Assembly (NCBI GenBank): GCA_046563655.1
Contig: CM102289.1
Location: forward strand, 8,866,001-8,930,000
Source of the DNA: Yuukianura sp. NJ FZ-2021
Taxonomy: Eukaryota
Direction of reading: 5' to 3'
DNA: 64,000 bases
The position numbers were made by a program, and so were the translations under genes. The notes under the pieces are model-generated. The model made no database searches. It was not told the origin of the DNA and saw nothing but the letters and a program-made list of their open reading frames with translations. This document shows positions 1 through 62,068 of the stretch, piece by piece; the stretch's first letter is position 1; each line of letters opens with the position of its first letter.

Positions 1-305
1 GAATTAATTAAATACCACAAGTATAAACAAGTCAAAATACCATATAAAAACGAAGGAAATGTTCTTTGTATGAGTTTTAAATAATCAATTTTAACGATGA
101 AACTAATTTTTTATATAATTTTGTAATTTTGAATTTGAATTTTTTGAATTTCGCGCTAAATTCAAAATTTCTGCCATCCACTAAAAGTTCCATCCATTTC
201 GGGTGCATTTCTTCCAGTGGATAACCAGTGGAAGTGGCAATTAAGCCACTGGAGTTTTAAGCGTCCAGCAACACTGGTTAGGTTTTAACCTAACAAAAGC
301 CTAAC

Positions 306-12300: not shown

Positions 12301-15300
12301 ACGGCGCGCCTAAAGAGCAAGAAAACCCATAAAGAACTGTCCTATTATTCTTGTTCCGAAGAACGTTTTTTAAAACAAGTTTTTTCAAACACGTTTTTAG
12401 AACATGAAAACACAGATGCGGATTGGAGTAATTAGAATTCCGGAACAATGGAAAGTGAGTGGGAGTGACAGAACTGGAGCTGCCATTTCCTGGAATGGGT
12501 TGACTATTCCTCGGTAGTGTCGGATACAGCAGTTCCTGTGCCACCAGATAGACTTTCTCCGCTAGACTTTTAGTTGTGACTAACGTAGAAGCCTAAATTG
12601 TTGCAAATGTAGTAAAACTTTTGTTAGTACTTGGAACGAGAGCTATTAGTTGAACAATAGTGTTGGAGTAATGGTGATGCATTGGGTGGAGTCAAATGTT
12701 TGCTCAAGAGTGAGACTCCATTAATTGAGTCCTAGAAATACATGGGACAAGGACACATAACCCTGGAAGCATGGACACATTTGGGAAGGTCCTTGGAGGC
12801 CTTAGCTGTCCTGACCATGCTAACTTTCCCCTGCGGAGAGGAGGAAGTGTCTCATTAGAAAAGGATAAGGACAATGTATCCCTGTCACTTCCAGAAGGTT
12901 CCGCATTGTCATTATTCCAACTTTCTCTAACCGGAGATGGAAAGCTAACGAACAGAAGCCTTCCAGGAACTTCCAGGGAGTTCTTCCAGCAACTTTTTGC
13001 TGGAAATCAAGTTTTGAAGAAGGAGGCTGGCGATTATGAGGAAAATGACGGATTAAGGCAGAGGAAGACAATGGGCCACTGGAGTCTCTCTGGCTCTGAC
13101 AGCGTGTTCCAGTACTCCATCACGACCACTTATGTCTCCTGGGCACCTTCTTCCTTAAGAATCACGGGTCAACAACGTTGGAAGCAACGCGAATTTCGAA
13201 ATTCGCGGTGAAAGTTTTGTCGGGATAACTGAAATTTTGAAATTGGAGGTGAAAATTTTCTGAAGGTGACTGCAATTTTGAAATTGGAGGTGAAAATTTC
13301 CTTGAGGTGAATGAAATTTTGAAATTGGAGGTGGAGGTAGATAAAGTTTTGAACTTCCGGTGTAAGTTTTTTTTTTGGTAAAAAAACGTGACTGATAGTT
13401 GAAAATTTTTGAAAAGAAGGGTGAGTCTGATGTTTTTTTTTGTGGTTAGCGTTTATGAAGACATTGAAAAAATAACTAAGAACTTTAAAATAATTTGGAG
13501 GTTGAAATGAAGAAGTTCCTTGAGGTTTTTAGACAAGGGGGGAAATGAAGTGATAAATTTGAGCTGGAGTTGTATTGATCCTGGAGATCAGTCTATGGAG
13601 TGCTGCTGAAAAAGATACATTTGGAGAAGACACTTTCTCTTGAAATTTTCTAAGGTTTTCTAGCTTTCTAGATTCTAGTTTTCTAAGGTTCCGTCTGATA
13701 GTAGCTAGAAAAGGAAGGGAGCATTTGATTTAGTTTCTCTGTGCCAAGAATGAATCTTCACACTTTCTCCATTCCCCAACCTGTAATTGGACTTTCATTT
13801 CCACTTTACTCAACGTCTAAAAAACCAGAAACGACACTACAATTCTTAAACAAAAATTACAACTGTCTGCTTCTACACCATAAATTTTCTCCCACAACAT
13901 TTCTCCAAGTTTCCAAAAAAAATCGAAATCTACTTTTCAATCAACAGAAAACGGAAAACCCTGACTACAGTTTCAAAATCCAACCATAGTGAAAAAAATA
14001 TTCCTGTTTTTTTTTTTTTTTTAAATCAAAATTTCCCGTTTTGCAACTTTTTCCAAAAATTTTGCTAGTGTAAAATCCGAACTCAGCCTTCACCTTACAC
14101 ATTCCCATGCACATTTCATTTTCATTAAGTAAAAATTGAATTGAATCGATCAAAAAACTTCGCAACGTCATTGCGTTATCAGATTTTTTTTTTACTTACT
14201 CAGCTGATTAGGTCATGTGACAGTTTTACGCACTTTGGTTTTAGTACTTTCTCTTTTTAGTTGTTTCGGATTGTTTTGTTGCTCTTGTTTTTGGGGGAAA
14301 TTGCTGCGTTGAAATTTTGAAATAGAAAATATTGAAAAAAAAATATTTCTTTAAAAATAGCGTGCTTACCTGTTCTAAAGTTGACCGCAATGTCTACGAG
14401 GAAGATGGTGTCTGAGAGACAGTTGAAGATGATCCATCGAATAGACAGGTCATCTCGGAAGAAGGAAATTGCAATGGGCAGAATGATGAGGTTGGCCACC
14501 AGGAGCAGCAGCATACACAAGTCCCAGTAGAACCTAAAGTATTACAAATTGTAACTCCAAATATCAAAATTCCCATCCATTACTCTTTATTGAGTTCAAA
14601 CAGGAAGGAAGAACACGCCTTTTGTTTATTCATTCAAAAATGGGAGCAGCCACGATTTGAAAAAAAAAACTTCGTAACGACTCTTACTCAGCGTATCTAG
14701 CATGCCTAGACTCCGTTAGAATAAGATTAGTTTGAAAAGGAGATGACAGGATGAGATTATTGAGAGCCTCCACAAACGAAAACTTATGAAAAAGGCGGGC
14801 TTTTTCAAAAATAGGCAACGCTGTACCTACCTATGTGTAGCTTTTAGTCTAATGAATGTTGCAGAAAGTAGATTTACAACGGGACGGGATACTCCTCGAC
14901 AGGAATTTCCTATTAGCCCAGTTTTGGAATATTCACAAGGAGAAAGTTGGTTTTGTGCAAGGTTCTTTGATAACAAAAGCTAATTTTCTTTAACAGGTTG
15001 AGTACTGCCTCGCTTGCTGACAAAAAGCAAAAATAAAATAGTACCAATTTAGTACCAATTCGTATGCAAAATTTAAAAAAATTAGCTGTATTGTTATGAC
15101 TATGATGCGTCGACATGAAATATTTTTTTTTGTAAAATCGAAAAGACATGAGGCATTACCCAACCTGTTAAAGAACATCAAAAGTCAACAAACCTTGGTT
15201 TTGTGTATCTAACGCTCCCATCTAACTTAGCATAGCATAGTTTACCCTCACATAGTCTAACTTAACCTAGGCAGATCCACCTTCCAGGAAGTTCCTGTCC

Positions 15301-18300
15301 AGGTAAAAACTTCAACATTATTCTATCCAACCTCCTTTCCTAATCCCACTTTGCTTTCTCCCGCCTTTTCCCCCAAAGTCCAATTTCTCTTCTTGTTTGC
15401 AAAGTAGGAACCTTAACTTTTCCATTTCACCAAAAAACTAGTGCTTACCTTCCAACGCTCAAAGTTGCCAAAAAAAGTCTACTTTTTTTGAAATGGAAGA
15501 ACTTTTGAGCAAATAAAGTTGAGGACTTGGAGAGTCCTTATTTATGCAACAGCTCTAAAATGGATTTGGTTCAAAAATAAACATAGCCCCTAGGAAAATC
15601 AATTCTCAATTTACTTTAACTTAGGAAGTCAATTTCCGTTTTTTCTTAGAAAATGAATGTTATTTGTTCAAATGAAAATCGAATTTTAAATTAGGCTCCT
15701 ACTGTGCAGGAAAACCATTTCCTAACGAGGAAGAATTTGCTGCTTATTTCTAGCTTATTTTCAAATTTAGAAAAATTGAGCCTTCATCGTCTAAATTGGT
15801 AAGTGGATTAAGAGCAAAGTGGTTTTCTAAAAAAAAAAATCTAAAAAAAAAGAAAAAAAAAAGTAAAATTCTGTTTTTATTAAAACAGATATGAATTTTT
15901 TGCACAAATTTTGTGCAAAAGTCTTAAAAACTTAATAATGACGAGCATAACTAATTAGTGTGAGTAAGTCTGTTCTCATAGTGCAGCAAGCATACTTTGC
16001 TTTCTCTCGAACTTGTAAATGAGCAATCCTGGTCGTAATTACGTAATTACACTGATGCAGTTGCATAATTACAATGAGGTAGTTACATAATTACTTAATT
16101 ACAAAGTTGTTAACTATTTGATGCATCATAAAGGATGAGGTTTATGGTTGAACTTGTGAATTGTTTAGTTCAAAAGCAAGAGGTTAACATTTTGTAGTAA
16201 GCATTGCGTCACAAAATTGCAACCTTTTCAAAATTTCAAAAGGTTTTTGAAAAACTTGTTTTCTAAGAAAAGTTCTGCAATTTAGGAAGAATTTGGTTTG
16301 GACCTTGGACATTATCTAAATTCGTGTCTGCTCAAGTGTTCAGAAAATGACTTTCAGCGCCAAAACACTTACGACCACTTAAAGTCATTCAACCAGCAAC
16401 AACAACAATTCTTAGTCCTTTGATATCCGCTTGCCAAGTTTTGAAAATCATTTCAAAAAACTTAAAATTCGGTTTTACATGGAGCAAATTGCTTTCTGTA
16501 CATGTTAAAATGCCAAATTAATGTTAATTGGTCACACTCCCGCTAAAATTTGGCAATAAAAACAAAGGCATTATGTGTTTTTAGAAATAAAAATCACCCT
16601 AAAATCAAACTTTCACTTTTAGGAAACCTTTTGAATTTAAAAAATTTTTGACAGTTAAAATAACAAATGTCAATAACTTGACAGGTGAAAGCGGAAGCAG
16701 CTTTCACTTCCATATTTTCAATTTACATTTTTTCACTTTTTTTTTCAATTTTTTGGTTTCGGATGCTGCTGCATGTCATACTCTGCTCAGAGGCATAATT
16801 CTACACCAAAATTCGGATCTTTATGATGCCATTTGAGCAAGATGCTTTCACTCTCGGCTTTCTCCCTCCTCCGTTGGGATCTCATTCACAAAATGCAGAA
16901 CTCGAGTTTTCCCGCCTCAAAAAAGCTTACTGTCGACAGGAGAAATTCCGGGAAAGTTTTGAATTTGTGTTCTGGCAAGATAAGGCATCCGCCTACGCAA
17001 GCAAACTGTTCGTATCTGACGGTTCTGCCGAAGAGGGAGGCCCATGTCCAATTTACCCACACATAAATTCCTATGGGGGATCTATTTTTTTGAAAATAGA
17101 ATGATAACAGAAGAACTGTAGAAGCATAACGTTATAGAAAAAAGTCAGTCATTCCAAAATTTAGGGTGAACAAAGTTATAATTTTCTCCTTTTTCCTGAA
17201 ATCACTTTTCCGAAAATTCCGAAATCACTTTTGCAAAGAGATCATTTCGGAAAAGCTCTTTTCAATTTTGGCGCCAAAGTGTTTTAACTGATTCACACCG
17301 TCTGACTCATTTTTCATAGAATTTCGTAGAATATAGAAGCTTTATTTTTTCAAAAAAGTAGAAAATTAAGGGAGTGTTAGTCACATAATTTGGAATTGAA
17401 AAGTCAAGTGTGGAAATTCTCAAGCACTTTCCCGCGCCATGTCATTATCACCTGAAAAATTTCGTTTTTTGAACTTTTTTTGTAAATCAAATCCTGTTTG
17501 GACCATTACCCAATTCTAGGAAGGAGGGAACATCAAAAGACCTTTTGGATGACACACACACAACAACTTCAACTTGACTGACTCAAATTCAAAGCCTTTT
17601 TTGCCGCCAAAGGGAAAGTGGAATTTGAACGACTGATTTCCTGTTACTCACAGAGCACAAAAACTGGCGGGAACTTTCAAATTCCTCGGACTTCCACAAG
17701 AACTAACTTAGATTTGATTTCCTTTTTCGGCTTCAGCGGAAAATCTAGGAAGCACGAAGTTTTTCACCCTAAAGTGAAAGCAGATTTGATCCAAGCCCAA
17801 ACATAGTTACAGTTTGGATACCTTAAAAATACAAAAAAAAGTAACTTTCAACTTTTCTTTTTCATTTTTTAAATTGAAATCATTGACTTTCAAAATTTAA
17901 AAAATGGGGTTTCTCCTTTTTATTCTGACCTTCCACGCCGGAAGTTTTGTGCTAAAGTTCAGAAAAGGCCATCAATCATATTCTAAGAAAAAGAAAAAGT
18001 TGATCCTCCTTTGAAAAAAAATTCTCATTGTCTCTTGGGAGTCTTTCGAGAGCTTCTGTTGTGGAAGGTGGCAGGCAATTTTGGCGAGAGTTTTTAAAAC
18101 AGGAAGGTAGAAGAAGTGAAAAAAAGAAAAGTGAAAGTCTTTTGGGCATTTGGAAGCCTTTGCTTGTATTTGGGGTCATAAATCAAAGTCCAGGAGGGTA
18201 GTGCTGGCGTTTTCAAAATCAAAATTTTAATCCCAAAAGAAATTACGAAATGGAAATGAGTTTTGGCTTTTACCATAAACTGAGAGAGTAGCAACCATAA

Positions 18301-21300
18301 CATCCAAGCTAACAAAAACTAGGATTTTACAAACTGCTGTTTCAAATTTTCGTGTTTTATTTTTGTAAATTCTGCTTTATTTAAGAAATGTTCTCAAAAT
18401 TTTCAAATTCTGAGATTCAAATGGGCTGTTCTCCGGAGACAAAGGGTTTGAGTGTATATTAATTCAGATTTTGTTAAAGTCAGCAAGAAGGACTCAAAAG
18501 TGTCTCTACTACGCTTGAAAATGAATGCAAAAGTCCTTGAGTAGTGAAAGTAGTGAAAGTACGAAGAGGTTCGTCTGGAGCCTACTTTTCCTATTCACTT
18601 GTAATTACTTATGCAAAAGGAACCTAGGGAAAATAGAACCTTAGGCACGCACCTAACTGAACTCAGGAACGAATACCGTAAAACTTCTATCACTAGCTGT
18701 TCTCTAAAAAACCCGGTCTCTAGTTTAAGCTCGGAGTGTTTTGGAGTAGGAATAAATAGAAGCCGCGGCTTGTATTAGAAGTTTTACGGTAAGTTACTCT
18801 AACATAACCTTAGTATAGCTGTTAAGACGAAGTAAGTTTCGAACACATAGAGTTCCCGCGCGACTAAATTCAACTCATCGACCTCTATATTCCCACCCAC
18901 CGAAAAAGTTGATTCCCCGCCCGGATCAACCAAAATTCGGTAACAACGAGGACAAAAGGCTTCTTCCATATTATCCGATCGATCACAAAACATAATGATG
19001 ATACAAAAAAACACGCCTAACAAGAACTAGTTTTGGAAATGACAAAAAGAGAAATCAGAACATAATAACAAAAAGTCCATCACAGCAGAAAATGCCAATC
19101 AGCTCATCAAGGGGCGGGCGGTGTCCAGTTTTTCCGTTTTTTCATTTCTGTGTATTGAAAGTTTTTGGAGGTAAAAACACGTTTTTTAGGAACCTCTTAC
19201 AAAAGGAAGTAATTTCATGAATCATGTTCACTCTTAGTATCATTCCGTTTGGAAAAATTTTCTGCCAAAAAACTTTGCTCTTTCCGGCCAGGCGGCAAGC
19301 AAGAACAGGAAGAGCCGACTTTTCAGAAAAAAAAATTTAGTCAATCCCGAGCAAAAAAAAAGTTGAGCGGCTGAATTTATGTGAAGAGTGGCGAACGTGC
19401 TATTTTTGGACTTTTTTGGGGAAGTTCAATTTTTATTGGCGTTGGGCTAGTAAAAGCAAGGTTGTTAGCCTAAAGTTGAACCATTCTATAGGTTTTAGCC
19501 TCACTTGAATCTTTGGCTCACCTGAAGTTGGAACAGGGGTGGATGATCCAGTGTCCAGCGTTCTTCTGCCTTATGCGTTCCTTCATGAGAGCTTTTTTGG
19601 ATCCGAATAGCTTCATGGCCAGCTTGTTGTCAGTGGGCTGGAAGAGGTTCTGGAGCTGGTTTCGGAGAAAAGACGGCTTGGACTCGGCCGCAGTCGAGGC
19701 GTGGCTCCCTGACCTTTCCAAATTTGTCATGCTGACGGTCAGGCCCTCGTCTTTTGGAGTACCGTAAAGACTCACGTCGTCACCCGAGAAATGGACACGA
19801 GAACCACTGAAACCTGGTGGACCGGCAGACCTAAACAAAAATTAGGTCAACAAAATAAGTTAGTCATTCATCAACATAAAATGAATACAGTTTGTTCAAA
19901 ATTTTACTTTCTTGACTAAAAGTTCAAAAACGTCATGGCACAACTTAACCTTACGCCTCTCAAATTGTACCCGCAGCAGCCTAACTTCAACCATAAATTG
20001 AGGTGATTAATCTAAAATTTAAATTTACCGGAAAAACTTGCTTGCAGAAGATTTTTTTTCCTTTTTATTTAGATGAAGTTGTTGCGGAGACTCATTTAGC
20101 AAAAAGTTGTACAAAAAAATTTTTCATGATGGTGAAAGTTTTGCCTGAATTCTGTCTTTTTTTTGGAATTCAAAAAATGCACCACGCAGTAGCAGTTATT
20201 AAACTAATATTTCCAGATATAGATATGGAACTTGTATCAAAAACTTTATGGTTTCCAGTATGGCACAAACTTTTAAAAAGGGAAAAAATAGAAAGTATCA
20301 TTTCTGTCTTTTTTTGGGGGAAAGTCTTGCTAAAGTAATGAGATTAATCTTCATTTTTCAGACTAATGGAACAATGAAAGGCCTCTCTAAGCCGATTTCT
20401 CTTCATAAGGAAAACTATACCAGGAGTCTCCTGCTGCTGAAGTCAAAAGAGAAAATGAGAAATTGTACCTCCCTATAAACGCGCCGAAATATAAAAAACG
20501 TGGGGAAAATTTTGGGGAAGGGCGGCAGACTCACTGGAGAGTGACAAGGAGAAAGTTCAGGGAAAAAAAGAGTGCCTTTTTCCTGTAACTTTTTTTTTCT
20601 GTTGTAAAACTTTTCTCGTCAGACTCCAATCATGGTCTCCGGTGACACAGTAAAGGTCACGTGCCTTGTCTACAGCATTTTACCCGGGTCTTTTTTGGTT
20701 CTAAGAGAAAGTCTTTGGGTTTTAGTCAAGTCCCAAGTTTCGTCGATATCTTTTCAATGAAAGTCATTGTTTTAGCCCCCAAATGTCAAGGTAGAGGAGA
20801 GAGTGCCTATAAAGATTAGGCTTTTCACCATCACTTTTTCTTTTTCAATAAGTCTTGGTGGATAGTTCTTTTTGTATAGTAAGTGGTGGGTGGTGGTGGC
20901 TCCGCTTTGGCCCCGCCACTATCTCTCCCCGCCCTTTGACCCCTCCCATTTCCCCCGCAATTCACATCCGTCTTAATCGAATCCGCACGTCTGGGGAAAC
21001 TGGGGCCTTCCGATTTTGAATTCACAAGAGAAACTAAAGAAGACTTTAAGTCCGCCAGCTCCCTCAAGTCGTTACATGGAAATGAAATTCCAATAATTCT
21101 CTTCCTTCGGTTCTGCATAGGGAAAAGGAGCAGACTTTCTCCAAATGACTCCAAAGTTTATGGAACATTTCCTGTTTCCTAACAACATTGGAATCAGAGG
21201 CTCATAAATTAGAAACCAAATTCTCATTTCCTGCCAAGGAGCCACTTTCCCGCGCTTTCTTCCTTCTCCGAAGATGAGCAAAAGACTGATGGGGATGATC

Positions 21301-45980: not shown

Positions 45981-47192
45981 TTATTGCGTTTTGGTTGGCG
46001 TGCCCATCTTCTCCAGCTCCATCTGCAAATCATTGACGTTTAGTCACATGACCTTTAAATAATTAATTTTTTTTGTATTTTGTTTCTCACGTATGAAATG
46101 ACAAGTCCAATGACATTGACACGTTCAGGAAGAGTAAGGCTGTCGTTGTTGAATTTTATATGAAGTCCAGTTGAAATTCCTCCAGTCACTTCTGCCACAT
46201 TTCCTTTCTTTTCTTTCTGTTTCTTATCCTTATCCTTGGGCTCTTTAACTTTCTTATCCTTTTCGTCCGCACCGTCTTTAACTTTCTTATCTCCACAATC
46301 TTTGCTCTTTTTATCCTTGTCCTTGCAATCTTTGTCTTTCTTTTCTTTGTCTTTGTTTTCTCCGCCGTCTTTGTCTTTATCTTTGACCTCCTTGTCTCCC
46401 TTATCTTTGTTATCCTTGGCGTCTTTGTCGTCAGTAGCATCTTTGTCTTTTTTATCCTTGGCATCTTTGTCTTTCTTATCCTTATCCTTGGCGCCCTTGT
46501 CTTTATCTTTGCAATCCTTATCCTTCTTGCCTTTAGCTTTGATGATCATCTACATTTTTAACAATGTTGAAGTTGTTTTTTTTTGTTTGACATTTTTTTT
46601 TAAATTCAGAATTACTTTCATCTCTCCATCGTTTTTGTTTCCTTTGCTACTGATACTGAGCAGTGGATGGTCGAGTGTATCATTCAAAACGATTTGGCGC
46701 TTCTTGTCCTTTCCTTCTTTTTCCTTCTTGTGCTCTTTGACCTCCTTTGTGCCAATTAACACTGATCCAATTGACTGGCCAGATGCATCTTGTAGCTGCA
46801 TTCGCACTCCCTATTCAAGCATTTCCAATTCAGTTTTGGAAAATTTGCAATTTGAAATTTTTTGAAACTAATTTCTATAAAGGAAACCAGTGCTCCGGTG
46901 TTCGAAAGCCTCAGGACGTCAGCATGCGCAGCATCTCTGATCACCAAAGAAGTTTCAGGCTGACCAAGATTCAAATCCAGAACAAACAAAATTGGATTTC
47001 CGTCAGCATCTTTTATAGTGTACTTGGTTCCATCATCGCCTTGACCTTGAATTCGAGGTAATGTCAAGTTTAGGTCACGAGGTCACGAGAAATTAGCGTT
47101 AATAAGAGAAAACTTCTAAAAGTATTACCTGGTAGCACAGAAAAAGAAATTGTTTTCAGAAGACTTGGCAAAACTGGAGCTGCAGGATCCAT
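45981..47192 (-). CDS. Putative scramblase/LURP-one (tubby-like fold) protein, ~305 aa, with Lys/Asp-rich low-complexity insert
   Basis: Exons 47192-47129, 47045-46888, 46810-46616, 46549-46091, 46022-45981 are in phase. Repeated hairpin motifs (YTIKDADGNPILFV, LVIRDAAHADVLRL, MQLQDASGQSIGSV, VLNDTLDHPLLSI) precede a terminal hydrophobic helix (IKFNNDSLTLPERVNVIGLVISY). AATAAA on the minus strand at 45845-45850. The gene model is solid; the fold is inferred. Confidence 0.6.
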
Positions 47193-47683: not shown

Positions 47684-48705
47684 TTAATGGATCTGCGTGC
47701 CGCTCTTGCAGTTCTCAGAACCGTAATTTTTGTGACCCACTTTACATGGTAATTGATGTAAACCATTTAGCATTGTCCTTTTGGTTTTGATTTGAAAGTC
47801 ATAGCATTTGGGTTCAAGGTCACCAAAATTGTACTGGGCAGTTTCGTTCTGTCCAGCACAAAATGCTTGAGTTGACAACTGGTAACATTCGCCGTTCTGG
47901 ACAAACCATGCTTTTGATGCTTCGGAAGTTTCTAGACAAAGTCGTTTTTGGCATGCTGGAGACGAAGATTCGTCAAGTGCCAACCACTCGTCTATGGCAC
48001 ATGGACCCTTTAAGGATGTAACGAAGTTCATAATTTCAAATTTTCTGAAAATTTTTCAAAAATTCGAAATTTTTGAAATTTACCTGTTCAAACAGAGTGT
48101 AGCATTGTTCTGTTGGCGGCCAGTAGGTCAATGGTCGATGAGTTGGTCCAGCGTACATTTTGCAATCACAGTCTCCGTAAGTGTCGTCTCCACCAATCAA
48201 ATAAAATCTCATGTTTTTCCCACATGGAGACACGCCTTTTCCAGGAACATAACATTTTCCAGTTCTGTTAAAAATTCGGTGGTAAATTCCCCATTCTGGA
48301 ATGTCTTCTCCGCATTTCGAGTTTCCTCTAAAACAACAATTTTAAAATTTCATATTTTCAAAATTTTAAAAGTTCAACATTTTGAAGAAAATAGATTTAC
48401 TTGATGTTTTGAATTTTTGAACTTTCATGGCTAAAATGGCGCTGAGACGTCTTTCCTTTGGCTAATAAATCCAACAATGAAAAAGTATTTTTAGAGTCGA
48501 TTGGAAAAGTTGAATTGTTGATTATAATTTCCGATGGTTCATTTTCCACTTGCACTTGAATTTGAACACTGTCGCGCTCTGGATGGAATTCCGTAGTGCC
48601 TAAATTTCGATAATGTTGACCTTGACCTAACCATTTTAGTGAAACTGCATTTATTTCTACAATGCAAATCAGTAGAAGAATGAAGACACTCCTGTATTTG
48701 GTCAT
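47684..48705 (-). CDS. Secreted cysteine-rich protein, DUF4789-like (~290 aa)
   Basis: Exons 48705-48401, 48327-48084, 48007-47684 are in phase. Signal peptide MTKYRSVFILLLICIVEINA; motifs GDCDC..YWP..CYTLFEQGPC and GECYQLSTQAFC. Confidence 0.72.
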
Positions 48706-51281: not shown

Positions 51282-52192
51282 TCAGTAGTAGTAGACTCCA
51301 TACACTGTCACGGTGCAAAAGAGGCTGTTCTAAAAATCCAAAAAGCCGAAATTCAAAATTCAATTTAAAAAGTCGAGAAAAATCCAAAATTCAAAATTTG
51401 TCGAATGAGACATGATATGATGTCTCAGGTCATCTTTTGTATCTTACGTTTCTGAAACTGTATGATGCAGAGTAGTCTGAATCTTGGTCCCACATACATT
51501 TCGTTGCAGCCAGGATTCCTTGACCTCTGAGTTCACCAATCGTGACATGCGTAATGAGTTTGTAACGGTGAAACTCCAGGGCCTTCACTTTTTCGTTAAT
51601 TGACGTCGTCATTTCTCTGATCCACGCTTGAACTTCAGACGCCACGTACGTCTTTCCAGCAATCACTTCGCGCAAGGCTTCTTGAATGATAGCGACAACT
51701 TCTCCTGGACGAAACTTCTCAGAGTACTCGGGCCTGATTTTCTTCAGAATCAACGGAGCAATGACAGGAGCACCGGAACCTGAAAAATACAAAATTGTTA
51801 TGCGTAGTGTCACTTTTTAGAAGAATTTCATGTGTGTGACCTTGACCTTCTTCTTGACCTGGCACCGTCTCCTCTTCACCCTCCGATTCATGATCGCTCT
51901 CTTCCTCTTCTTCGAAATCTTCATACTCTTCTTCATCTTGAATCAAAATGGTTTAAAAATTTAAAGTTCCGTTTGTTTAGAAAGTGATTGTTTAGAAAAA
52001 GTGAAAACCTTCGCCTTCTCCATCTTCCATGCTGGTGACAGATTCGGCGGGAGGACGTTCCTGGACAGCAGAGTCACGTTCACGCTCAGCCTTGCTGGCT
52101 CTGCCTTCATTTGGTTCCGTTTTTTCAGTTTCTTCTTCTTCCTCTTCCTTACTACTTGGCTTCCGCTTCTTCACTTCTCCTGCGTCAGACAT
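51282..52192 (-). CDS. Tctex1-domain dynein light chain (TCTEX1D2/DYNLT2B-like), ~219 aa with acidic N-terminal extension
   Basis: Exons 52192-52009, 51936-51841, 51779-51448, 51329-51282. Tctex motifs RYKLITHVTIGELRGQG, CMWDQDSD and NSLFCTVTVYGVYYY*. Confidence 0.88.
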
Positions 52193-52394
52193 TTTCAAAC
52201 TTTCTTGCAACTTCGCACTAGAAAAGCGTCAAAATGTTTAAAATATTCAGCACTGATCAAATTCAATTCTCGCTCCAGAAATTGAAAACAGAACTTCGTT
52301 TCTTGACAAGGTAAATAGAATATCTTGCATTTCTTGCATGTTTTTTGGAAACTGAACAAACAGCGAACCTGATTTGTTTGGATTTTGCTAACAA

Positions 52395-52915: not shown

Positions 52916-55900
52916 ATGGCGGCTCCTGCAAAAGCCTTAGGGCGTCGTAAATCACATAGACGTAGAAAAGAAGATGATGACATGTACCGTGTGGCACCGG
53001 TTCAAAAACCGCCAAATCAAGAAAAGTTATCGGCAGAGGTAAAACATAGAAACTTTTTAAAAACTTTCAAAATCCGTTTGGTTTTGTTATTATCTAAAAT
53101 TCACTATTCTAAAATACTTCAGGAGCTACAACAAGAAGTGGTTCGAACCCTAACAACCTTTGATGCGTTGAAACCAAAAAACAATATTGTCTGGGACTTC
53201 AAGGAAAAGTTTGAACTCAATTAATTACATTTTCAATGCGAATTTTTTTCAAAATTTTGAAAATTGGTTGATTTTTCAGTGCGTTCATTCTTGCTGTGGA
53301 TGATGAGAGTAGTTACTCCACCTTGTTTTCAATGGCATCTGAACTTGTTGACCCCGGTGACGTTGGAGACGTTGATACAGACGAATTGGGTATTTCAAAA
53401 TCCGAAATTTTTCAAAAACTTGACATTTTATACGGTGACCTTTGACACGATTTGCCCAAGGTGACCTCATTGACGACATTTCTGAGAAAGAAGAAGATGA
53501 AAATGCACCAAAAGTGGAAGTTGTTGAGGAAGCACCAAAACCCGTCATCGCAGCCAAGTTGGCACCCAATGTTTCTGGCAAAACTGATGCAAAAGAAGAA
53601 GACATTGAGGAACCAGAAGGTGATTTCCAAAAACTGTTCAAAATTTAAAAAAAAATACTTTCAAGTTTTTTGTTTTAAAATTTAGAGGAGAAAGAAGAGG
53701 CTCCAGCGGCTGCTGGTTCCGAAGGAAGTCAAAAGAAGTTGTTGAATTTGTTCAATTTTTGTGAAAGAGCCGCTCAAACGGAGACGTTCAAACATCGAGT
53801 CAGCCTTTAAAAAATTACCCTAATTTTCAAAATTTTGATTCATTTTTCAAAAAATTTATAGGAGCATAGTGTCCAAACAGAGAATCCAGTGAAGGCTCAT
53901 TACAGGTGAGGTCAAAGGCCAAATGCCAAAAACCAAAAACTTTGAATCTCATAAAAATTTCTGGATTTTGAAATTTTGAAAATATCAGAGACATGTGCAA
54001 TCAGTGGATCATTTACGATGCTTACAAAGCGGATGCTGTCAATCGTCCAGTTGAAAAAGAAGCGGGAAAAGACGATTTTGTGCTGGAAGGAGATGAGAAT
54101 AATCCGGGTGCTGAGCATGCGCAAACGCATGAGGAACATTCCAAAGACACAATCAAGAAAGACGACTTGTAAGAAAACGAAGACTTTTTCAATCTCTAAT
54201 TTCCATTTAGTTTTCAAATTTTCATTTTTTTTTTAGAAAACTGGCGGAAAAACCAAAAGTGAAAATGCGGAAAGCGTCTTATTTAAGTGAAGGTTACCAA
54301 ATTGGAGGCGGCGACCAAGCGATCATGCTGAAAGCAGTTGACGGTCTTCGTTTCATGGAGAGACTCGTTGGATGCAACGTTTTTGAAGATGTCATTGAAG
54401 GTAAGACTGAAATTTTTCATAATTTTGCTTTTTTTCAAAATTTAAAACAAGTTTTTGAACCAGACTTCAAGTACTATGAAGATGGAGCAGACGAATACAG
54501 AGATCCGAGTGAGCCCATTTACGGTACACTTTTGCCTCTCTGGAAATTCCATTACGACAAAGCTAAGAAGATGCATGTCACGTCCATCAGTTGGTCAATT
54601 TCTGAACCTGACATGTTCGCCGTGACATTTGGATCATGTGACAACTTTTTTCAAACATGCGCATGCGTGAACTTAATCTTGAGCATAACCTAATCCAAGT
54701 TTCTCGTAGTTAACTTTATGCATCCCGTTCGGCATGGATTGGTCCTAGTTTACACTCTGAGAAATACGACGTACCCTGAGTTTGCTTGGACGGCCCCCCG
54801 GGGAGCCATGAGTTGTCACGTCCATCCGCAGTATGAATCTCCCATTTACGGTCACTTTTGGCCAAGTCCAAGGTTGCTATAGCAACGAAATAGTTTTCCT
54901 TTAACAGGTTAGGCAGTAAGTTCTGTTTTCGAAAAATCTTGAGTCATACAATTTTTTCTACCTTTCTTCTACAGCAATGGGTACTGGGTGAATTCACTTT
55001 TAAAAATTTCTTGCAAAAAGCTTAAAACTCGAGTTATTGCCTAACCTGTTAATGGAAAAGTATTTCTTTGTTTATCTACCTTGGCCAAGTCCATGTTAAT
55101 TTGTCCCTTGATTCACATTTTGGCGTGCTTTTTAGACGAAATTGTTTGGTGGCTGTGGGACTGTATGATGGAAACGTCGGAGTGCTCAACCTTGAAAAAA
55201 ACGAAGACAACCAAAACAGAACCGAGATTTTGAGAAATGTTGCCACGGTGCTGAAACACCGTGGTGCAATTTGGTCAGTCAAGTGGGGTCCGGATGACAT
55301 CGATGGCAATCCGGTCTTCTATTCGTCCGGTTTGGATGGAAAATTGATGCAATGGACCATCGGGACACCAGATACACAACAGTCAGGAGGTTTGCAAGGA
55401 ACGGAACTAGCGACATTTCATCTGCCCAACAATCCTGTTCCTGGGCCGGACGGAACACGATACAAGCTTTTTGGTTGAAAAAATTTGGAGAATCATTTAA
55501 AATTTTGAGAAAAAAATTGAAAAGTTTCCAAATTTTGAAATCTTAACTTTGCTGAATTTGTTAGGGTGTGGAAGGGTCCTTGCTTTCCATCCGAAAGAGA
55601 AAACGATTTTTCTGGTTGGAACAGCCGAAGGGAAAGTTTTGAAATGCTGTGTCAACTATGCCTCAAAATTTCAAATGGTTTTGAACAATTTCAAAATTTT
55701 GAAGAACAATTTGAAAATTTAGATAAATTTTGTTATGCGTGGTTAAGGTTTTTGATGCGCACTACTTGCCAGTGGCAGCACTTGAGTGGAACCATTACCA
55801 CACTGACATTTTTCTGTCTGCCTCGGAAGACTGGACAATCAAAATTTGGGATCAAGACACCCAGTACAGATCTTTATTTTTCGAAACAAATTTTCAAAAT

Positions 55901-56541
55901 TTTAATTTTGGAATGTGATATGTTTACTTCTTGAAAATTTTAGAGCTCCAATGTACATGTTCGAAGTGGGTGTGCCAATTTTGGACGCTTGTTGGGCTCC
56001 CTACAGCTCCACAGTTTTTGCAGCTTCGACTGACGAAGGGAAGGTGAGATTGGTTTCGATTACTCTTTGATTTTGTCTATTTTTAAAATTTTAAAATTTC
56101 GAAATTTCGAAAATTTGAAAGGTACTGGTGTACGACTTGGTCATAAACAAAGAGAGGCCAATCTGTAATCAACAAGTTGTGACTAAAAAGAAAGTTCGTC
56201 CACACCGCCTCCAGTTTAATCCTCTTCACCCAATACTCATTTTGGGAGATGACAAGTAAAAACCAAATTATAAAATTTTGATTTCATTTGTTGTAAAAAT
56301 GTTTTTGTTCAGGAGTGGACTGTTAACTCTGAAACTGTCACCCAACCTCCGGATTTTTCCAAAAGACAGTCGAAATATTTTTTACTTGGAGGGAGAGGTC
56401 AGAGTTCAATATGAAATTAACAAATTGAAAAGACTTTTGACTCTTGTACGGGATCCAGAAAGTATGCAATCAAACACAATTCAGGATGAACAACTACTCA
56501 CTGAATTTGAAAATATCGAGGTTACGAAACAAGAAAATTAA
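52916..56541 (+). CDS. DNAI1: Axonemal dynein intermediate chain, DNAI1/IC78-like (WD40)
   Basis: 16 phase-consistent exons: 52916-53038, 53123-53208, 53280-53389, 53461-53619, 53686-53798, 53862-53905, 53989-54168, 54237-54400, 54464-54637, 54710-54830, 55136-55473, 55565-55677, 55748-55863, 55944-56043, 56122-56255, 56313-56541. Motifs NLFNFCERAAQT, NQWIIYDAY, DFKYYEDGADEY..GTLLPLWKF, VAVGLYDGNV, FLSASEDWTIKIWD, WAPYSSTVF, LKLSPNLR. Confidence 0.9.
54871..55081. mobile_element. Non-autonomous TIR element (MITE), 211 bp, in DNAI1 intron, 12-bp flanking direct repeat TGGCCAAGTCCA
   Basis: Direct repeats at 54859-54870 and 55082-55093; termini AGGT...ACCT. Arm gaaatagttttcctttaacaggttaggcagtaa matches the reverse complement gaaatacttttccattaacaggttaggcaataa. 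Removing the element and one repeat copy shrinks the 305-bp intron to 82 bp, like its neighbours. Confidence 0.8.
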
Positions 56542-57178: not shown

Positions 57179-58969
57179 TTAGTTTGGAATATTCCTCCAA
57201 AGATGGACACAAAAGATAACAGTCAGGACGGAATCCACACACAACGCCGCCGTCCAGGCCCCAAGGACCCAGCCATACGTCGGTACTAGAATACCCATTT
57301 CATATAGAATCAGCGGTACCAAGTTTACCGTCAAAGTGGTACCCACGACCTGGTAGAACACATAAACGGTATCTCCTGTTCCATAAAACAGGCTGTCCAT
57401 CACATTGTTGTACGAAAGTAGCACAAACGTCCAGCCAATGTAATTGAAATTCTGAGCCGACTGAGCCTGAACTTCTGGATTGGTTGGATTAAAATACTTG
57501 GCAATATCCATCCAAAAGAAGTATCCAAGCGTGAGCAAAATCGTGTCCCAGGCGGTAAGGGCTAAAAATGCTTCCTTTGAAGTCTCCCGAATGACTTTCT
57601 TAAGGGCTGGCCCCTTCGCCTCATGTCCAACGAGGACTTTAACGTAACTGGAAACAGAGTTGGTTGGAACCAGGAACACACCGAACATTATAGTCATGAG
57701 CAGATTCCATCCGCCGACTTGTGTAGAGCCAAGAGAATTTAAAAATTTCAAGGTCATCATGAAGTAAAAGAAGTTTCTAATTGCGGACTCTCCAAAATTG
57801 GGCCAACTGACGACGAAAAGTTCAGACATTTTGGTTTTGAAGTCTCTTCGAATTGAAATGTCCCACCAAAATTCCTTCAAACTGACACGTTCTATGACAT
57901 GGAGAAAGAAAAAGTTGACGAAGAGATCAAAACTGCTTTGAATGACCTTGTAAGTTCCAAGGTCATCTGAGTCCCACTGGAGACTGAAGGGACCTTGTCT
58001 AAATAGGAAGTAATTGAAGAGGAAAGTACTGATTAATTGAATTAGTTGAACGAAAATGAGGTGTCCACTGGTAGTTATGTAGAGAAAGTTGACCATGGCG
58101 TAATTCAGGAGCATCATGGGGAAACTGAAGGCGCTGAGCCATAGGAACCTCTTCGTGGCTTCGACAATCTCCGGCGGAGTGTCGATGAAACTGACAAATT
58201 GTTCGGTGAATCCGAGAATAAATGCTGCCAGTACAATTCCAGCTCCAGCGAGCAGCACAAATGCGAGCTTCAATCCGCCAAGCGCTTCCGACCGATTTTC
58301 TTTGTAATTCTTTCCAACAAAGTGAAACAAACTGGAGAAACAAAAAAAAGTGAAAAATTTCAAAACAAAAAGTAAAAAGTAGCAGACAAACGCTGAAGAA
58401 AAGTATTCAAAAGTTCAAAATGCGCGACGCAATCTACTGTTTTTTTTTTGTTTTTTGTTTTTTTTTTGAAAATTTTCAAAATTTTGATACCTGTTTCCAA
58501 TTCCTTCCTTGATGACCTCGAGAATGACATCGACAAAGGCAAACTGACCAGCCAGGGCCAAACTGTCCGTGGACGGAAGTGATCCAACATAAAACATTGG
58601 AATTAAATACGAAAGAGATGGAACGATATTGGCAAAAATAAATTTTGTCAAAATTTTGGACGGAAACAGAATTTTGACAGGTAGTAGAAGATACTGGCAG
58701 CATTTTGCGGTGGTTAAGCGTCTCAGTTTGGATATGAGCTTAATTTGACTGGAATGGACATGCGTCGAGTCATTTTGACTTTCGGCGTCACTGTCAGCCA
58801 TGTCTCCAACGACACTTAGCAACGGCGTAAATTCTTCTCCGCCGGTAGTCCTTTTCTTTCCAGAAGCCACCAGCACTGCCCCACCGTCCCCACCAGTGCC
58901 CCACCAGTCAGTCGCTTCTTTGAGGGAGTCCCTCCTACTCCGAGTAGTTTCTGACACAGTAGGTGACAT
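57179..58969 (-). CDS. MATE-family multi-pass efflux transporter (~543 aa), two exons
   Basis: Exon 1 58969-58491 (AG|gtatca, phase 2) joins exon 2 58331-57179 (tttctccag|T). Many hydrophobic segments; motifs LAGQFAFVDVILEVIKEG, FGESAIRNFFY, YNNVMDSLFYGTGDTVY. Confidence 0.8.
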
Positions 58970-60491: not shown

Positions 60492-61072
60492 TCAGCTGAG
60501 ATGGGTAGTTGCATCTTCGATGATTCGAGTTGCCTCTTTGTATTCCTCAGTCTTTCCGACAGCAGTATCACGATTCGAATCCACGAGTTCTTTCAGTTCT
60601 CCAACGGCCGTCTAAACATAAAAACAAACGATTGGAGTGAGACAATTGAATTGAATGGCCGATTGACGTAAAAACGAAGTGAAGACAACTATACCGTAAG
60701 GCGACGACAAACATCAGGAATCATCATCTCCGTTTCCCTCAAGCAGTTTTTCTGCAAATCCAGAAATAAATCAATCGTCACAAAAACGTCAGATTATCGT
60801 CACTGCAGTGTGCAGTTGGACAAATAGGAACAGAATTCCAAGCTCACAGCGTTTTTAAGGATTGTCGCTTCCTTTCCTTCGTTTTCATATTGAGTCACCA
60901 AAGTCCTCTGCTGCCCTGCCTCTTTTTCGTAACTCTGCTTGTCCTTCGTAAGTCGCTTGACAATACCGAATTTGATTTTGAGGGCCTTGACAATCGCTGG
61001 ATCTGGCGGAGATTCGTTTCCTTCTTCAGCGGCCGTCGTTCCGGAATCCTTGGGAGATGAGTCATCAGCCAT
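60492..61072 (-). CDS. TBCA: Tubulin-specific chaperone A (~133 aa)
   Basis: Exons 61072-60848, 60751-60695, 60611-60492. Motifs LKIKFGIVKRLTKDKQSYEKEA, LRETEMMIPDVCRRL and EEYKEA match the TBCA pattern. Confidence 0.92.
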
Positions 61073-62068
61073 GTTGAAACAAGCGACACTGACTCGGGTT
61101 CTGTTCTAAGAAATGACAATCAATATTTATAAGCCATGATAAACGCTTAATTAATTTGTGTAATAAATCTTACCTGTTAATTAAAATAAGATACGTAAAT
61201 TTAACAAAATGGAAACGAAATGAGCAAAATAAAAATAAAATGACCAAAACGTCAACCCACACACACCCCCGGTTTAATACGTCACCACATTGCACGTATG
61301 GGCAAAAATATCACCAATCATACATTAATTGTAGTAGTCAAATGCAACTAATCACAAACTTTCACACTAACTTTTACCGATATCGTTTCGTAATATTACT
61401 CGTATTTATTTATAATATGATAACGATAACCAACTCATTCCATTAATTAATTAGTTAGGTGTTTAAAAATAACAATTTCCACAATACAGCTTGAAAATGC
61501 CCATATCTGAATAGGTGATTGCGGGCCGTGAGTGCGAAATTTTCAAATCGTTTCAGTATCATATGTTTCCCGCCTTTATTGGGAAAAATTCTGAATGAAT
61601 TGTAAAAGAATGAACGTTCTTGGCAAATGGTAAATTGATTAAAATTTGGGCTGAAAATTGACCGGTTAGATCCAGCTTGGATACGTCAATTAACATTCTC
61701 CAACTGCCAATTCGGTTGAGTTTCGATAGATTGACGACGGCATCGTCGAAGTCAAAGTCGTCGACGCAGTCGCAAACGACGCAGAGCATGCATAGGAGGA
61801 GGGATGGGTGGTATTTCTTGAAAAAATGAATAGGAAGGACTACGGTACGCCCGAAATCAGGCGGAAGAAGTTAAATTCATCACCAAGGACAAGGAGACCT
61901 CACCGTGCGAAGTGCGAATTAATAAAACTCATTACGTTTGTTGTCGTTCTGACCGTGACCTTGTCATAACCATTTTCATTGGCATTGAACTCGAGACAGC
62001 AATCAGTCGTTACTGATAAGAACTAAATCGTTCATCCCATTCATCCCAAGATCCAAACTCCTATTACA

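Follow-up and report, generated by a model that had tools for sequence, protein, structure and literature searches.

The locus studied here raises the question of how a MATE transporter gene of prokaryotic appearance comes to lie among animal genes in a 64,000-nucleotide stretch of Yuukianura sp. NJ FZ-2021 DNA (contig CM102289.1, positions 8,866,001 to 8,930,000; here called the window). The reading that fits best is an old transfer followed by domestication, not contamination and not a transporter of ordinary animal descent; the gene probably encodes a functional 12-helix MATE-type antiporter that was derived from a prokaryote, anciently acquired by a soil-arthropod lineage, and since domesticated. 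A sequence-only reading of this DNA had proposed a domesticated horizontal acquisition. The prokaryotic likeness and the integration into the host stand, but the gene is neither private to this animal nor recent: it appears to belong to a small, old eukaryotic clade.

The gene occupies the minus strand from 58969 to 57179 and consists of two exons with a 543-aa product; the spliced coding sequence of 1632 nt has a single, terminal stop. Exon 1 (58491..58969; 159 codons plus 2 nt) starts at an ATG at 58969, with its MSP.. aligned to the MAP.. of a homologue on metagenome contig L001, and encodes the N-terminal extension, TM1, and the beginning of TM2. The intron (58332..58490, minus strand) is of spliceosomal type, with GT..AG borders, a length of 159 nt, phase 2, and a GC content of 0.26; it interrupts a Ser codon (AG, then T), and homologues are continuous over the splice junction (...EG(I/V)xNSLFHFVG...). 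Exon 2 (57179..58331, minus strand) encodes the rest of TM2 through to TM12 and ends with a TAA stop at 57179-57181. Upstream lies an exon of the gene for tubulin cofactor A, TBCA (60803..61105, minus strand; Pfam TBCA, 3.9e-10), and on the other side, convergent with the MATE gene, is a gene for an axonemal dynein intermediate chain (53981..56538, plus strand); both served as synteny anchors and the latter also as a host marker. The contrast drawn earlier between one intron in 1.6 kb of coding sequence and much-interrupted neighbours is supported by the two-exon model and by the dynein gene, which was recovered by tblastn in pieces of ~70-590 bp; the contrast is therefore real, as judged from these tblastn pieces. 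Scanning the window for Rfam families and tRNAs gave no matches.

The gene product is a highly divergent MATE transporter of the MOP superfamily. Its exon-2 product matched Pfam MatE (PF01554) in two stretches with 57.6 bits against a cut-off of 24.9; the exon-1 product alone had no Pfam match, but its residues 105-157 align with the first 56 profile positions of NF045539 (MATE_efflux1, named by NCBI as Na+-driven efflux). Among NCBIfam models, NF045539 fitted the window protein best, with coverage of profile positions 4-56 and 60-411 of 411, and was matched by all 60 sequences of alignment A4; the NCBIfam NorM model matched only 1 of the 60. Exon 1 scores 28.5 bits and exon 2 scores 81.6 bits, far below the cut-off of 350, and the window protein is therefore placed outside the NF045539 equivalog; full-length family members scored 128-175 bits and prokaryotic sister proteins 230-263 bits. 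When the model was run against two prokaryotic and 14 control genomes, nothing exceeded the cut-off. An AlphaFold2 (AF2) model of the exon-2 product (pLDDT 88.2, pTM 0.82) comprised the end of TM2 and TM3-TM12. The full-length homologue P0005 was modelled with 12 long helices (pLDDT 91, pTM 0.87); the 12-helix count is taken from this homologue, and TM1-2 of the window protein were placed by alignment. MATE structures were the best Foldseek matches (probability 1.00, TM ~0.55-0.77, identity 10-17%). A protein atlas look-up returned only generic MATE and WD40 clusters.

The motifs that had suggested a bacterial or archaeal subfamily, YVGSLPSTDSLALAGQFAFVDVILEVIKEG, GESAIRNFFYF, and NNVMDSLFYGTGDTVYVFYQ, are present in the window protein and align with conserved blocks of prokaryotic relatives. 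The window protein has the same 12-helix plan as the NF045539 branch, and the two share LA..SQ..F....E.IQE, IDTP, (D/E)S..RN..Y, and DSLFYG.G.T.Y..QS; identity to members of that branch (Lewinella WP_157974436.1, Dehalococcoidia, Nitrososphaerota) is only ~28%, with scores below 350, and the animal protein alone has a 101-aa extension, an intron, and eukaryotic neighbours. The proposed affinity with bacterial or archaeal MATEs rather than with animal SLC47 is upheld by NF045539 as the best model, by the Lewinella MATE (28% BLASTP identity, E 6e-32), and by a family profile that reaches no MATE in the PDB. That profile found no chains at E<=0.01 and none at E<=10 in a PDB library that includes human MATE1/SLC47A1 and plant MATEs, so that no sequence relation to SLC47 or plant DTX proteins is detectable. 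The fold is shared with these proteins (Foldseek TM 0.65-0.77 to human MATE1, AtDTX14, CasMATE, and NtMATE2), and by analogy the window protein would be expected to work as they do, through cation-coupled export of organic compounds. Identity in the structural alignments is 12-17%, not above that to bacterial MATEs; human MATE1 reaches 14-16% in Foldseek alignments compared with 28% for the Lewinella MATE by BLASTP. From the failed sequence detection and the low identity in the Foldseek alignments, we infer a probable origin separate from that of SLC47. DinF-type structures (DinF-BH and ClbM) were the only solved structures reached by the prokaryotic cousin P0029, marginally (E 0.013-0.12), and none was reached by the profile of the window's own family; the TM1 Asp of the DinF class has no obvious counterpart in TM1 of the window protein.

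The nearest relatives outside the family are prokaryotic MATEs of 430-470 aa that lack the extension and that, among the matches listed, are named as Lewinella, Dehalococcoidia/Chloroflexota MAGs, Nitrososphaerota, and Bacteroidota. Together with P0019, the family formed one clade amid prokaryotic groups in a 95-row tree (99 SH-aLRT) and in a 49-row tree (100/100); the tree rows included no canonical eukaryotic MATE or SLC47 protein. P0019, which derives from a metagenome contig and has no N-terminal extension, may be either a prokaryotic or a divergent eukaryotic member. The family stem branch is very long; the P0029 group came out as the sister of the family (97/97), with a long-branch warning, and this relation disappears once that group is omitted. 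The loci of relatives were collected with an eight-sequence alignment (A3), of which 80 were kept, mostly close to P0023, with the P0029 group and P0019 left unsampled. Since, beyond a narrow set of recipients, its closest relatives come from another domain of life, the gene is, on this phylogenetic pattern, a predicted horizontal acquisition.

The recipient group indeed appears to be narrow. A profile search of 1.84e9 representative proteins yielded 311 matches at E<=1e-3. In a look-up of 5.8e9 protein clusters, including NCBI and UniRef, with 8000 candidates scored per word-indexed search, the named family members among the matches listed were Folsomia candida, Bradysia coprophila, B. odoriphaga, and Pseudolycoriella hygida. 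The clade thus appears not to be widespread in Metazoa, its named carriers listed being one springtail and three Sciaridae. The window protein was 45-62% identical to copies on three metagenome contigs (L001-L003).

The gene is physically integrated in the host genome. The intron recurs at the same codon and in the same phase, with GT..AG borders, in L001 (1114-1171) and L002 (2876-2958), and is absent from L003. The gene order TBCA-MATE-dynein is conserved in L002, where TBCA lies at 484-735 and the dynein chain at 4363-7786 on the opposite strand, and L001 retains the end of the dynein neighbour gene. The genes around the MATE gene in the window are eukaryotic (HCN channel, Tctex-1, TBCA, WD40/dynein, and C2H2). 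A dynein exon used as query had eight matches, for which a cephalopod (39%) was the sole organism listed by name, but the cluster of the best match contains Orchesella proteins. Among six proteins compared by tblastn, the dynein neighbour was closest to that of the springtail Orchesella, with a mean identity of 52% over 600 aa to Orchesella DNAI. Codon use is host-like: GC3 is 0.50 in the MATE gene and 0.45 in neighbouring exons, with an RSCU correlation (r) of 0.56. Logan DNA contigs from two runs covered 30 of 30 bins across the gene and its flanks, in fragmented fashion, and a run from another study covered 28 of 30, its pieces being mostly ~90-97% alike.

Residues that are conserved across the family and its prokaryotic relatives are retained in the window protein. 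The TM2 Glu position is D/E in 60 of 60 sequences and is represented by the Glu in LEVIKEG; the TM7 block has an acid in 58/60, an Arg in 58/60, and an Asn in 59/60, seen here as Glu, Arg, and Asn in GESAIRN; and the Asp of the TM10 block (39/60) is found in MDSLFYG. In NorM-VC the cation is bound by conserved acids of the C-lobe, in TM7 and in TM10; based on conservation and on this analogy, the residues listed above are the candidate coupling residues. A dN/dS of 0.13 between L001 and L002 shows that these orthologues evolve under purifying selection. Against the window copy dS was saturated, and hence the ratio was not computable.

The N-terminal extension is encoded at 58667..58969 (minus strand). 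Its hydrophilic character is confirmed (GRAVY -0.38); its length had been put at ~95 aa and is in fact 101 aa, counted to the conserved FPS anchor that starts at residue 102. The extension occurs family-wide in variable length and is lacking in the prokaryotic relatives, and the corresponding segment of P0005 was modelled as disordered (to ~residue 37). Known MATE proteins have a cytosolic N-terminus, on the side where adaptor complexes bind, and by analogy the extension would lie on the cytosolic side. The acidic di-leucine motif that had been pointed out, EFTPLL, is found at residues 46-51 (58817..58834, minus strand) and fits [DE]xxxL[LI]. At the corresponding place L001 has EFSPLL and L002 has ETSPLL, so all three close orthologues retain E-x-[ST]-P-L-L within a segment that is otherwise poorly conserved; the related ES[ST]PLY occurs in P0006 and P0008. 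None of the other family rows examined, those of F. candida and the Sciaridae among them, carries E-x-[ST]-P-L-L. A [DE]xxxL[LI] match arose in 11-15% of shuffled extensions (0.15 for one extension); therefore, the motif alone is weak, and its conservation among orthologues is what counts. That conservation makes it plausible that the di-leucine motif targets the window pump to vesicles.

Four other explanations have to be weighed against these data. Bacterial contamination or an assembly chimera could be suspected from the prokaryote-like sequence and from the GC content of the coding sequence (0.449), which is above the window mean of ~0.36; however, neighbouring exons have a similar GC content (0.427) and GC3, the reading frame needs a GT..AG intron that is conserved in two independent metagenome contigs, the eukaryotic flanking genes are conserved on one of them, and the Logan contigs span the locus in runs from more than one study. 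The argument that the intron and the animal neighbours speak against contamination is thereby strengthened by the intron in L001 and L002, the TBCA/dynein synteny, and the host-like codon use. The shared intron and gene order therefore rule out contamination, to which we assign a practically negligible probability, and indicate that the acquisition is old. A relic that is decaying or has lost its function is also very unlikely. The window copy does have the longest terminal branch of the orthologous trio (0.74 versus 0.17 and 0.40), but its frame of 543 codons is open, the TM2 Glu, the TM7 acid, Arg, and Asn, and the TM10 Asp are all present, the AF2 model is confident, and its sister orthologues are constrained at a dN/dS of 0.13.

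An ancient eukaryotic or arthropod MATE that was vertically inherited, lost in nearly all other animals, and made to look prokaryotic by divergence is improbable, although less so than a relic. The very long stem and an identity of only ~28% to any prokaryotic protein would fit such a history, P0019 might be a further eukaryotic member, and an AU test (p 0.09) leaves acceptable a separate clade of the 12 non-sciarid rows apart from the sciarids; the tree is therefore compatible with a hexapod-wide vertical history. Set against this are the named carriers listed among 5.8e9 clusters, confined to one springtail and three Sciaridae, the mere 311 relatives found by an exhaustive profile search, the match of 60/60 relatives examined to NCBI's prokaryotic model NF045539, the lack of a sequence-level link to human and plant MATEs, and the intron-poor gene structure, with one intron here and none in L003. 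In addition, three papers report the passage of other genes among springtails, mites, and Sciaridae (PMC12051294, PMC11665903, PMC13389597). The remaining alternative concerns the location of the pump rather than its origin: it might work as an efflux pump at the plasma membrane, or secrete metabolites that the animal itself makes, with EFTPLL having no sorting role. Most characterized animal and bacterial MATEs work at the cell surface, and the frequency of the motif in shuffled extensions and its absence from the other family rows examined point the same way. The retention of E-x-[ST]-P-L-L in three of three orthologues amid a poorly conserved segment, the related motif in P0006 and P0008, and an N-terminus expected on the adaptor-binding side argue for sorting instead; a surface pump is quite possible nevertheless, if not the location that we favour.

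On the old, domesticated transfer that we prefer, the ancestor of this gene probably passed long ago from a prokaryote to a soil-arthropod lineage, with springtails as the best-supported host of the acquisition. Domestication would have added the spliceosomal intron and the hydrophilic, presumably cytosolic N-terminal extension and brought codon use into line with the host, and the gene now has a stable place between TBCA and the axonemal dynein intermediate-chain gene. Folsomia candida and sciarid fungus gnats carry members of the same clade, either paralogues or orthologues. The pump would export organic cations or secondary metabolites from the cytosol, with H+ or Na+ as the exchanged ion, using the TM2 Glu, the TM7 Asp/Glu-x-x-x-Arg-Asn block, and the TM10 Asp. 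In the window lineage, E-x-[ST]-P-L-L may route the pump to endosomal or lysosome-related vesicles, where the acidic lumen would power toxin sequestration.

The distribution of the family is reminiscent of other alien genes in these animals. Bradysia coprophila is reported to carry 28 alien P450s, 17 of them springtail-derived (PMC12051294); terpene synthases that B. coprophila acquired from mites have been described (PMC11665903); and HGT-chimera cluster 3 is reported to be common to springtails, fungus gnats, and mites (PMC13389597). The taxon pattern of the MATE gene is the same, Collembola and Sciaridae, with no other named insects among the matches listed; unlike the P450 and terpene synthase genes, it encodes a membrane transporter and is ultimately of prokaryotic type. 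The accessible text of the three papers does not mention this MATE gene, and the F. candida accession, MatE, PF01554, and "multidrug" are absent from 12 of the 15 supplement files of PMC13389597. A literature search, with subscription papers outside its scope, found no paper on MATE transfer into springtails or Sciaridae. In the maximum-likelihood tree, F. candida and the sciarids formed a clade with support of 99/100; however, an alternative with the 12 non-sciarid rows as one clade, a group picked after the tree had been seen, was not rejected by the AU test (p = 0.0897), and the direction of a springtail-gnat transfer is thus not established, the nesting notwithstanding.

The transfer of functional genes from microbes to animals is still debated case by case, and membrane transporters are rare among the accepted transfers, since they depend on being targeted correctly in the recipient. 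The locus described here passes the usual tests for contamination, namely, an intron, a gene order shared with an independent contig, and orthologues under purifying selection, and it displays the add-ons that a bacterial pump has gained in a eukaryote. A bolder reading, rather unlikely as a whole, is that this is the first prokaryote-derived MATE shown to be fixed in animals and that it belongs, with P450s and terpene synthases, to a transferable "chemical ecology kit" that passed from microbes to springtails and then among soil arthropods to sciarids, a new N-terminal signal having enabled vesicular, H+-driven sequestration of dietary or self-made toxins in the window lineage. With this locus it could be tested directly whether a short N-terminal signal suffices to redirect a prokaryotic pump. 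Since its distribution mirrors that of the springtail, mite, and gnat P450s and terpene synthases, the family would add a transporter to the gene-exchange network of soil arthropods.

The MATE transporter gene lies on the minus strand of the window at 58969..57179. Exon 1 (58969..58491) opens with an ATG at 58969, exon 2 (58331..57179) ends in a TAA stop at 57181-57179, and the 159-nt intron between them (58490..58332) has gt...ag ends and a GC content of 0.26. Joined by these coordinates, the exons yield a 1632-nt coding sequence of 543 residues with one stop, the terminal one; the junction falls inside a serine codon (AG/T), and all full-length homologues read ...EG(I/V)xNSLFHFVG... unbroken over the splice point. 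The single intron, its junction and the motifs quoted in the sequence-only reading, which were found in the translated protein, were all correct.

That reading had also found the protein's motifs more like those of prokaryotic MATEs than those of SLC47, and our searches agree. The 383-residue exon-2 product (P0002) scored 57.6 bits against Pfam MatE (cut-off, 24.9), and the top NCBIfam model for the window protein was NF045539, "MATE family Na+-driven efflux transporter", which covered it end to end, although the scores of 28.5 (exon 1) and 81.6 bits (exon 2) are far short of the 350 that the model requires. AlphaFold2 modeled P0002 with a pLDDT of 88.2 and a pTM of 0.82, and the full-length homologue P0005 with a pLDDT of 91 and a pTM of 0.87, giving twelve long helices behind an N terminus that was unstructured and of low confidence to about residue 37. 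In Foldseek, both models matched NorM, VcmN, PfMATE, Aq_128, DinF, human MATE1 and plant MATEs (TM-scores of about 0.55 to 0.77, 10 to 17% identity); since structures of every class were matched alike, the fold cannot tell MATE classes apart. A sequence profile of the family, the small eukaryote-like clade to which the window protein belongs, retrieved no PDB chain even at E<=10 from a library that includes human MATE1 and plant MATEs. Taken together, the domain, fold and profile results show that this is a true MATE-fold protein without a specific relation to SLC47.

Three metagenome contigs encode relatives of the window protein, at 62% (L001), 59% (L002) and 45% (L003) identity. L001 and L002 carry a GT..AG intron at the identical codon and phase (AAC AG/gt...ag/C or T), and L002 has the gene order of the window, with the tubulin cofactor A gene (TBCA) upstream of MATE and, downstream in convergent orientation, a gene for an axonemal dynein intermediate chain; the end of the same dynein gene is present on L001. 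It follows that contamination is excluded, as the intron and the animal neighbors had been taken to indicate, that the gene resides in an animal genome, and, from these sequence comparisons, that the insertion predates the split of the three organisms. L003, which comes from the same metagenome as L002 (Ga0194135), has no intron at that position in its gene (1065-2198, encoding P0005), and the occurrence of this intronless copy beside an intron-bearing syntenic orthologue implies that the family has both intron-free and intron-bearing lineages. Codon use and DNA-contig cover also speak against contamination. The MATE coding sequence has a GC content of 0.449 and a GC3 of 0.50 (neighboring exons, 0.427 and 0.45), and its RSCU correlation with neighboring exons was 0.56, compared with values of -0.05 to 0.43 when four of the prokaryotic relatives were used instead. 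DNA contigs from two runs covered 30 of 30 bins over the gene and its flanks, and those from a run of another study covered 28 of 30, in pieces mostly about 90 to 97% alike.

The other genes of the window are eukaryotic as well: an HCN-type channel, Tctex-1, WD40/dynein, TBCA and a C2H2 zinc-finger protein. Among six retrieved proteins, those of the springtails Orchesella cincta and O. dallaii were closest to the dynein neighbor (mean identity of 52% over 600 aligned residues; summed bits, 637 to 639), versus 212 to 352 bits for the other four, including 275 for a cephalopod. On this small set of comparisons, the host is most probably a springtail or something closely related to one. The long, intron-rich HCN-type cyclic-nucleotide-gated channel gene (293-19841, minus strand) matched Pfam Ion_trans_N (19521-19841), Ion_trans (14260-14541 and 2645-2872, the pore with CIGYG) and cNMP_binding (293-481), and probably continues past the window start. 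Next to the axonemal dynein intermediate-chain gene is a dynein light-chain gene of the Tctex-1 family (51433-52228, minus strand), whose product is very acidic in its N-terminal part, so that two dynein components lie side by side. Two adjoining cysteine-rich exons (47687-48341, minus strand) scored 22.5 and 23.6 bits for Pfam DUF4789, under the cut-off of 27, and a low-complexity, K/D-rich long open frame with KDKDK repeats (46058-46549, minus; 46164-46862, plus) had no Pfam match.

The family makes up a very small part of the MATE superfamily. P0002, as the query of a word-indexed search, returned 14 proteins (37 to 61% identity), and the family profile returned 32 at E<=1e-20. An exhaustive HMMER search over 1.84 billion representative proteins gave only 311 at E<=1e-3, of which 125 reached E<=1e-10 and 24 reached E<=1e-30. 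The named carriers are three sciarid fungus gnats found by family profile, Bradysia coprophila (LOC119071909), Bradysia odoriphaga (HA402_006182) and Pseudolycoriella hygida (Bhyg_12287), and the springtail Folsomia candida (XP_035702382.1), found by cluster look-up. The next relatives are proteins of 430 to 470 residues without the N-terminal extension, such as Lewinella WP_157974436.1 (28% identity to P0002 over its full length; E, 6e-32). Scanning prokaryotic species genomes with this group gave 179 relatives among 245 candidate stretches; the best 80 were mostly from Dehalococcoidia/Chloroflexota MAGs, with six from Nitrososphaerota (Cenarchaeum, Nitrosopumilaceae, "Thaumarchaeota") and two from Bacteroidota, including Lewinella. 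NF045539 matched all 60 sequences of a joint alignment of family and prokaryotic relatives. Within the prokaryotes, P0023-type MATEs of Dehalococcoidia/Chloroflexota and Nitrososphaerota MAGs (L004-L080 versus L062, L067, L068 and L072-L074) are 56 to 65% identical, and the two groups adjoin in the tree (support, 100), which suggests that this type moved between domains.

Trees were built from the family and its prokaryote-like relatives, with no canonical eukaryotic MATE among the rows; fragments (P0003, P0004, P0017, P0018, P0020-P0022 and P0033) and representatives of <400 or >620 residues were omitted. In a quick search of 95 rows (LG+G4), the eukaryote-like sequences formed one clade (SH-aLRT, 98; 99 with the metagenome protein P0019) within an unresolved set of prokaryotic groups. 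A careful search of 49 rows (LG+C20 PMSF), with 14 of 71 prokaryote-like representatives, recovered (UFBoot/SH-aLRT) the family with P0019 (100/100), the family alone (92/91), the window with L001 and L002 (100/100), and a clade of 19 rows that includes the three named Sciaridae (100/98) and whose sister is the Folsomia group (99/100). The family was sister to the prokaryote-like P0029, P0035 and P0037 (97/97, with a long-branch warning). When the P0029 group was omitted, the family joined a Lewinella/Dehalococcoidia set with weak support, and the order of P0019 and the family was no longer resolved. An AU test did not reject a single clade of 12 non-sciarid rows, a group chosen post hoc after tree inspection (delta lnL, 14.6; p, 0.0897). 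Consequently, neither the donor lineage nor a springtail-to-gnat direction is fixed by the trees. P0019 (456 residues), which lacks the N-terminal extension, has a very long branch and has the FFP.PSF and GNS.F blocks in common with the animal family; it may stand for the donor lineage or come from a further eukaryotic carrier.

L001 and L002 differ by a dN of 0.21 and a dS of 1.6 (dN/dS, 0.13); dS relative to the window copy was saturated. When family members are aligned with prokaryotic relatives, the TM2 Glu is D or E in 60/60 sequences, the TM7 acid is present in 58/60, with an Arg (58/60) and an Asn (59/60) after it, and the TM10-block Asp in 39/60; the window protein retains all of these (LEVIKEG, GESAIRN, MDSLFYG). 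The protein would be a cation-coupled exporter through which organic cations or secondary metabolites would leave the cytosol, with a coupling site formed by the TM2 Glu together with the polar block of TM7/TM10.

The hydrophilic N-terminal extension noted earlier is real, with 101 residues to the FPS anchor and EFTPLL, an acidic di-leucine ([DE]xxxL[LI]) motif, at residues 46-51. Extensions of 32 to 112 residues occur in all 27 family rows with a recognizable anchor (P0019, 7). The motif reads EFSPLL in L001 and ETSPLL in L002, where it lies with a conserved DW in an open frame 5' of the first ATG (2445-2604); this position points to a probable further 5' exon, or to an unusual start. The remaining family rows examined lack it; in P0006 and P0008 its place is taken by ES[ST]PLY. 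Such a motif arises by chance in 11 to 15% of shuffled extensions. The N termini of solved MATEs are cytosolic, so the conserved signal would be on the right side for adaptor binding, and plant vacuolar MATEs perform H+-coupled substrate loading into the lumen; in an acidic vesicle, an H+-coupled MATE would do likewise. Vesicular retargeting is a reasonable but putative idea. We give it a fairly low probability, only slightly below that of a role solely at the surface or in secretion in which sorting plays no part, and assign the remaining weight to neither.

The earlier proposal is supported in part: the gene is best read as a horizontally acquired, domesticated prokaryote-type MATE, but the acquisition is old and common to a small arthropod clade. 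Searches of the open full-text literature found no account of a MATE transfer into springtails or Sciaridae. A gene cluster common to springtails, fungus gnats and mites has been reported (PMC13389597), and a window-type MATE is not listed in passages of that paper or in 12 of its 15 supplement files. Passages of other work attribute the 28 "alien" P450 genes of B. coprophila to springtails (17), mites (10) and fungi (1), and its five terpene synthases to mites (PMC12051294); canonical terpene synthases are recorded in Sciaridae, Collembola and Acariformes (PMC11665903). The window MATE would join these horizontally acquired chemical-defense genes of soil arthropods.
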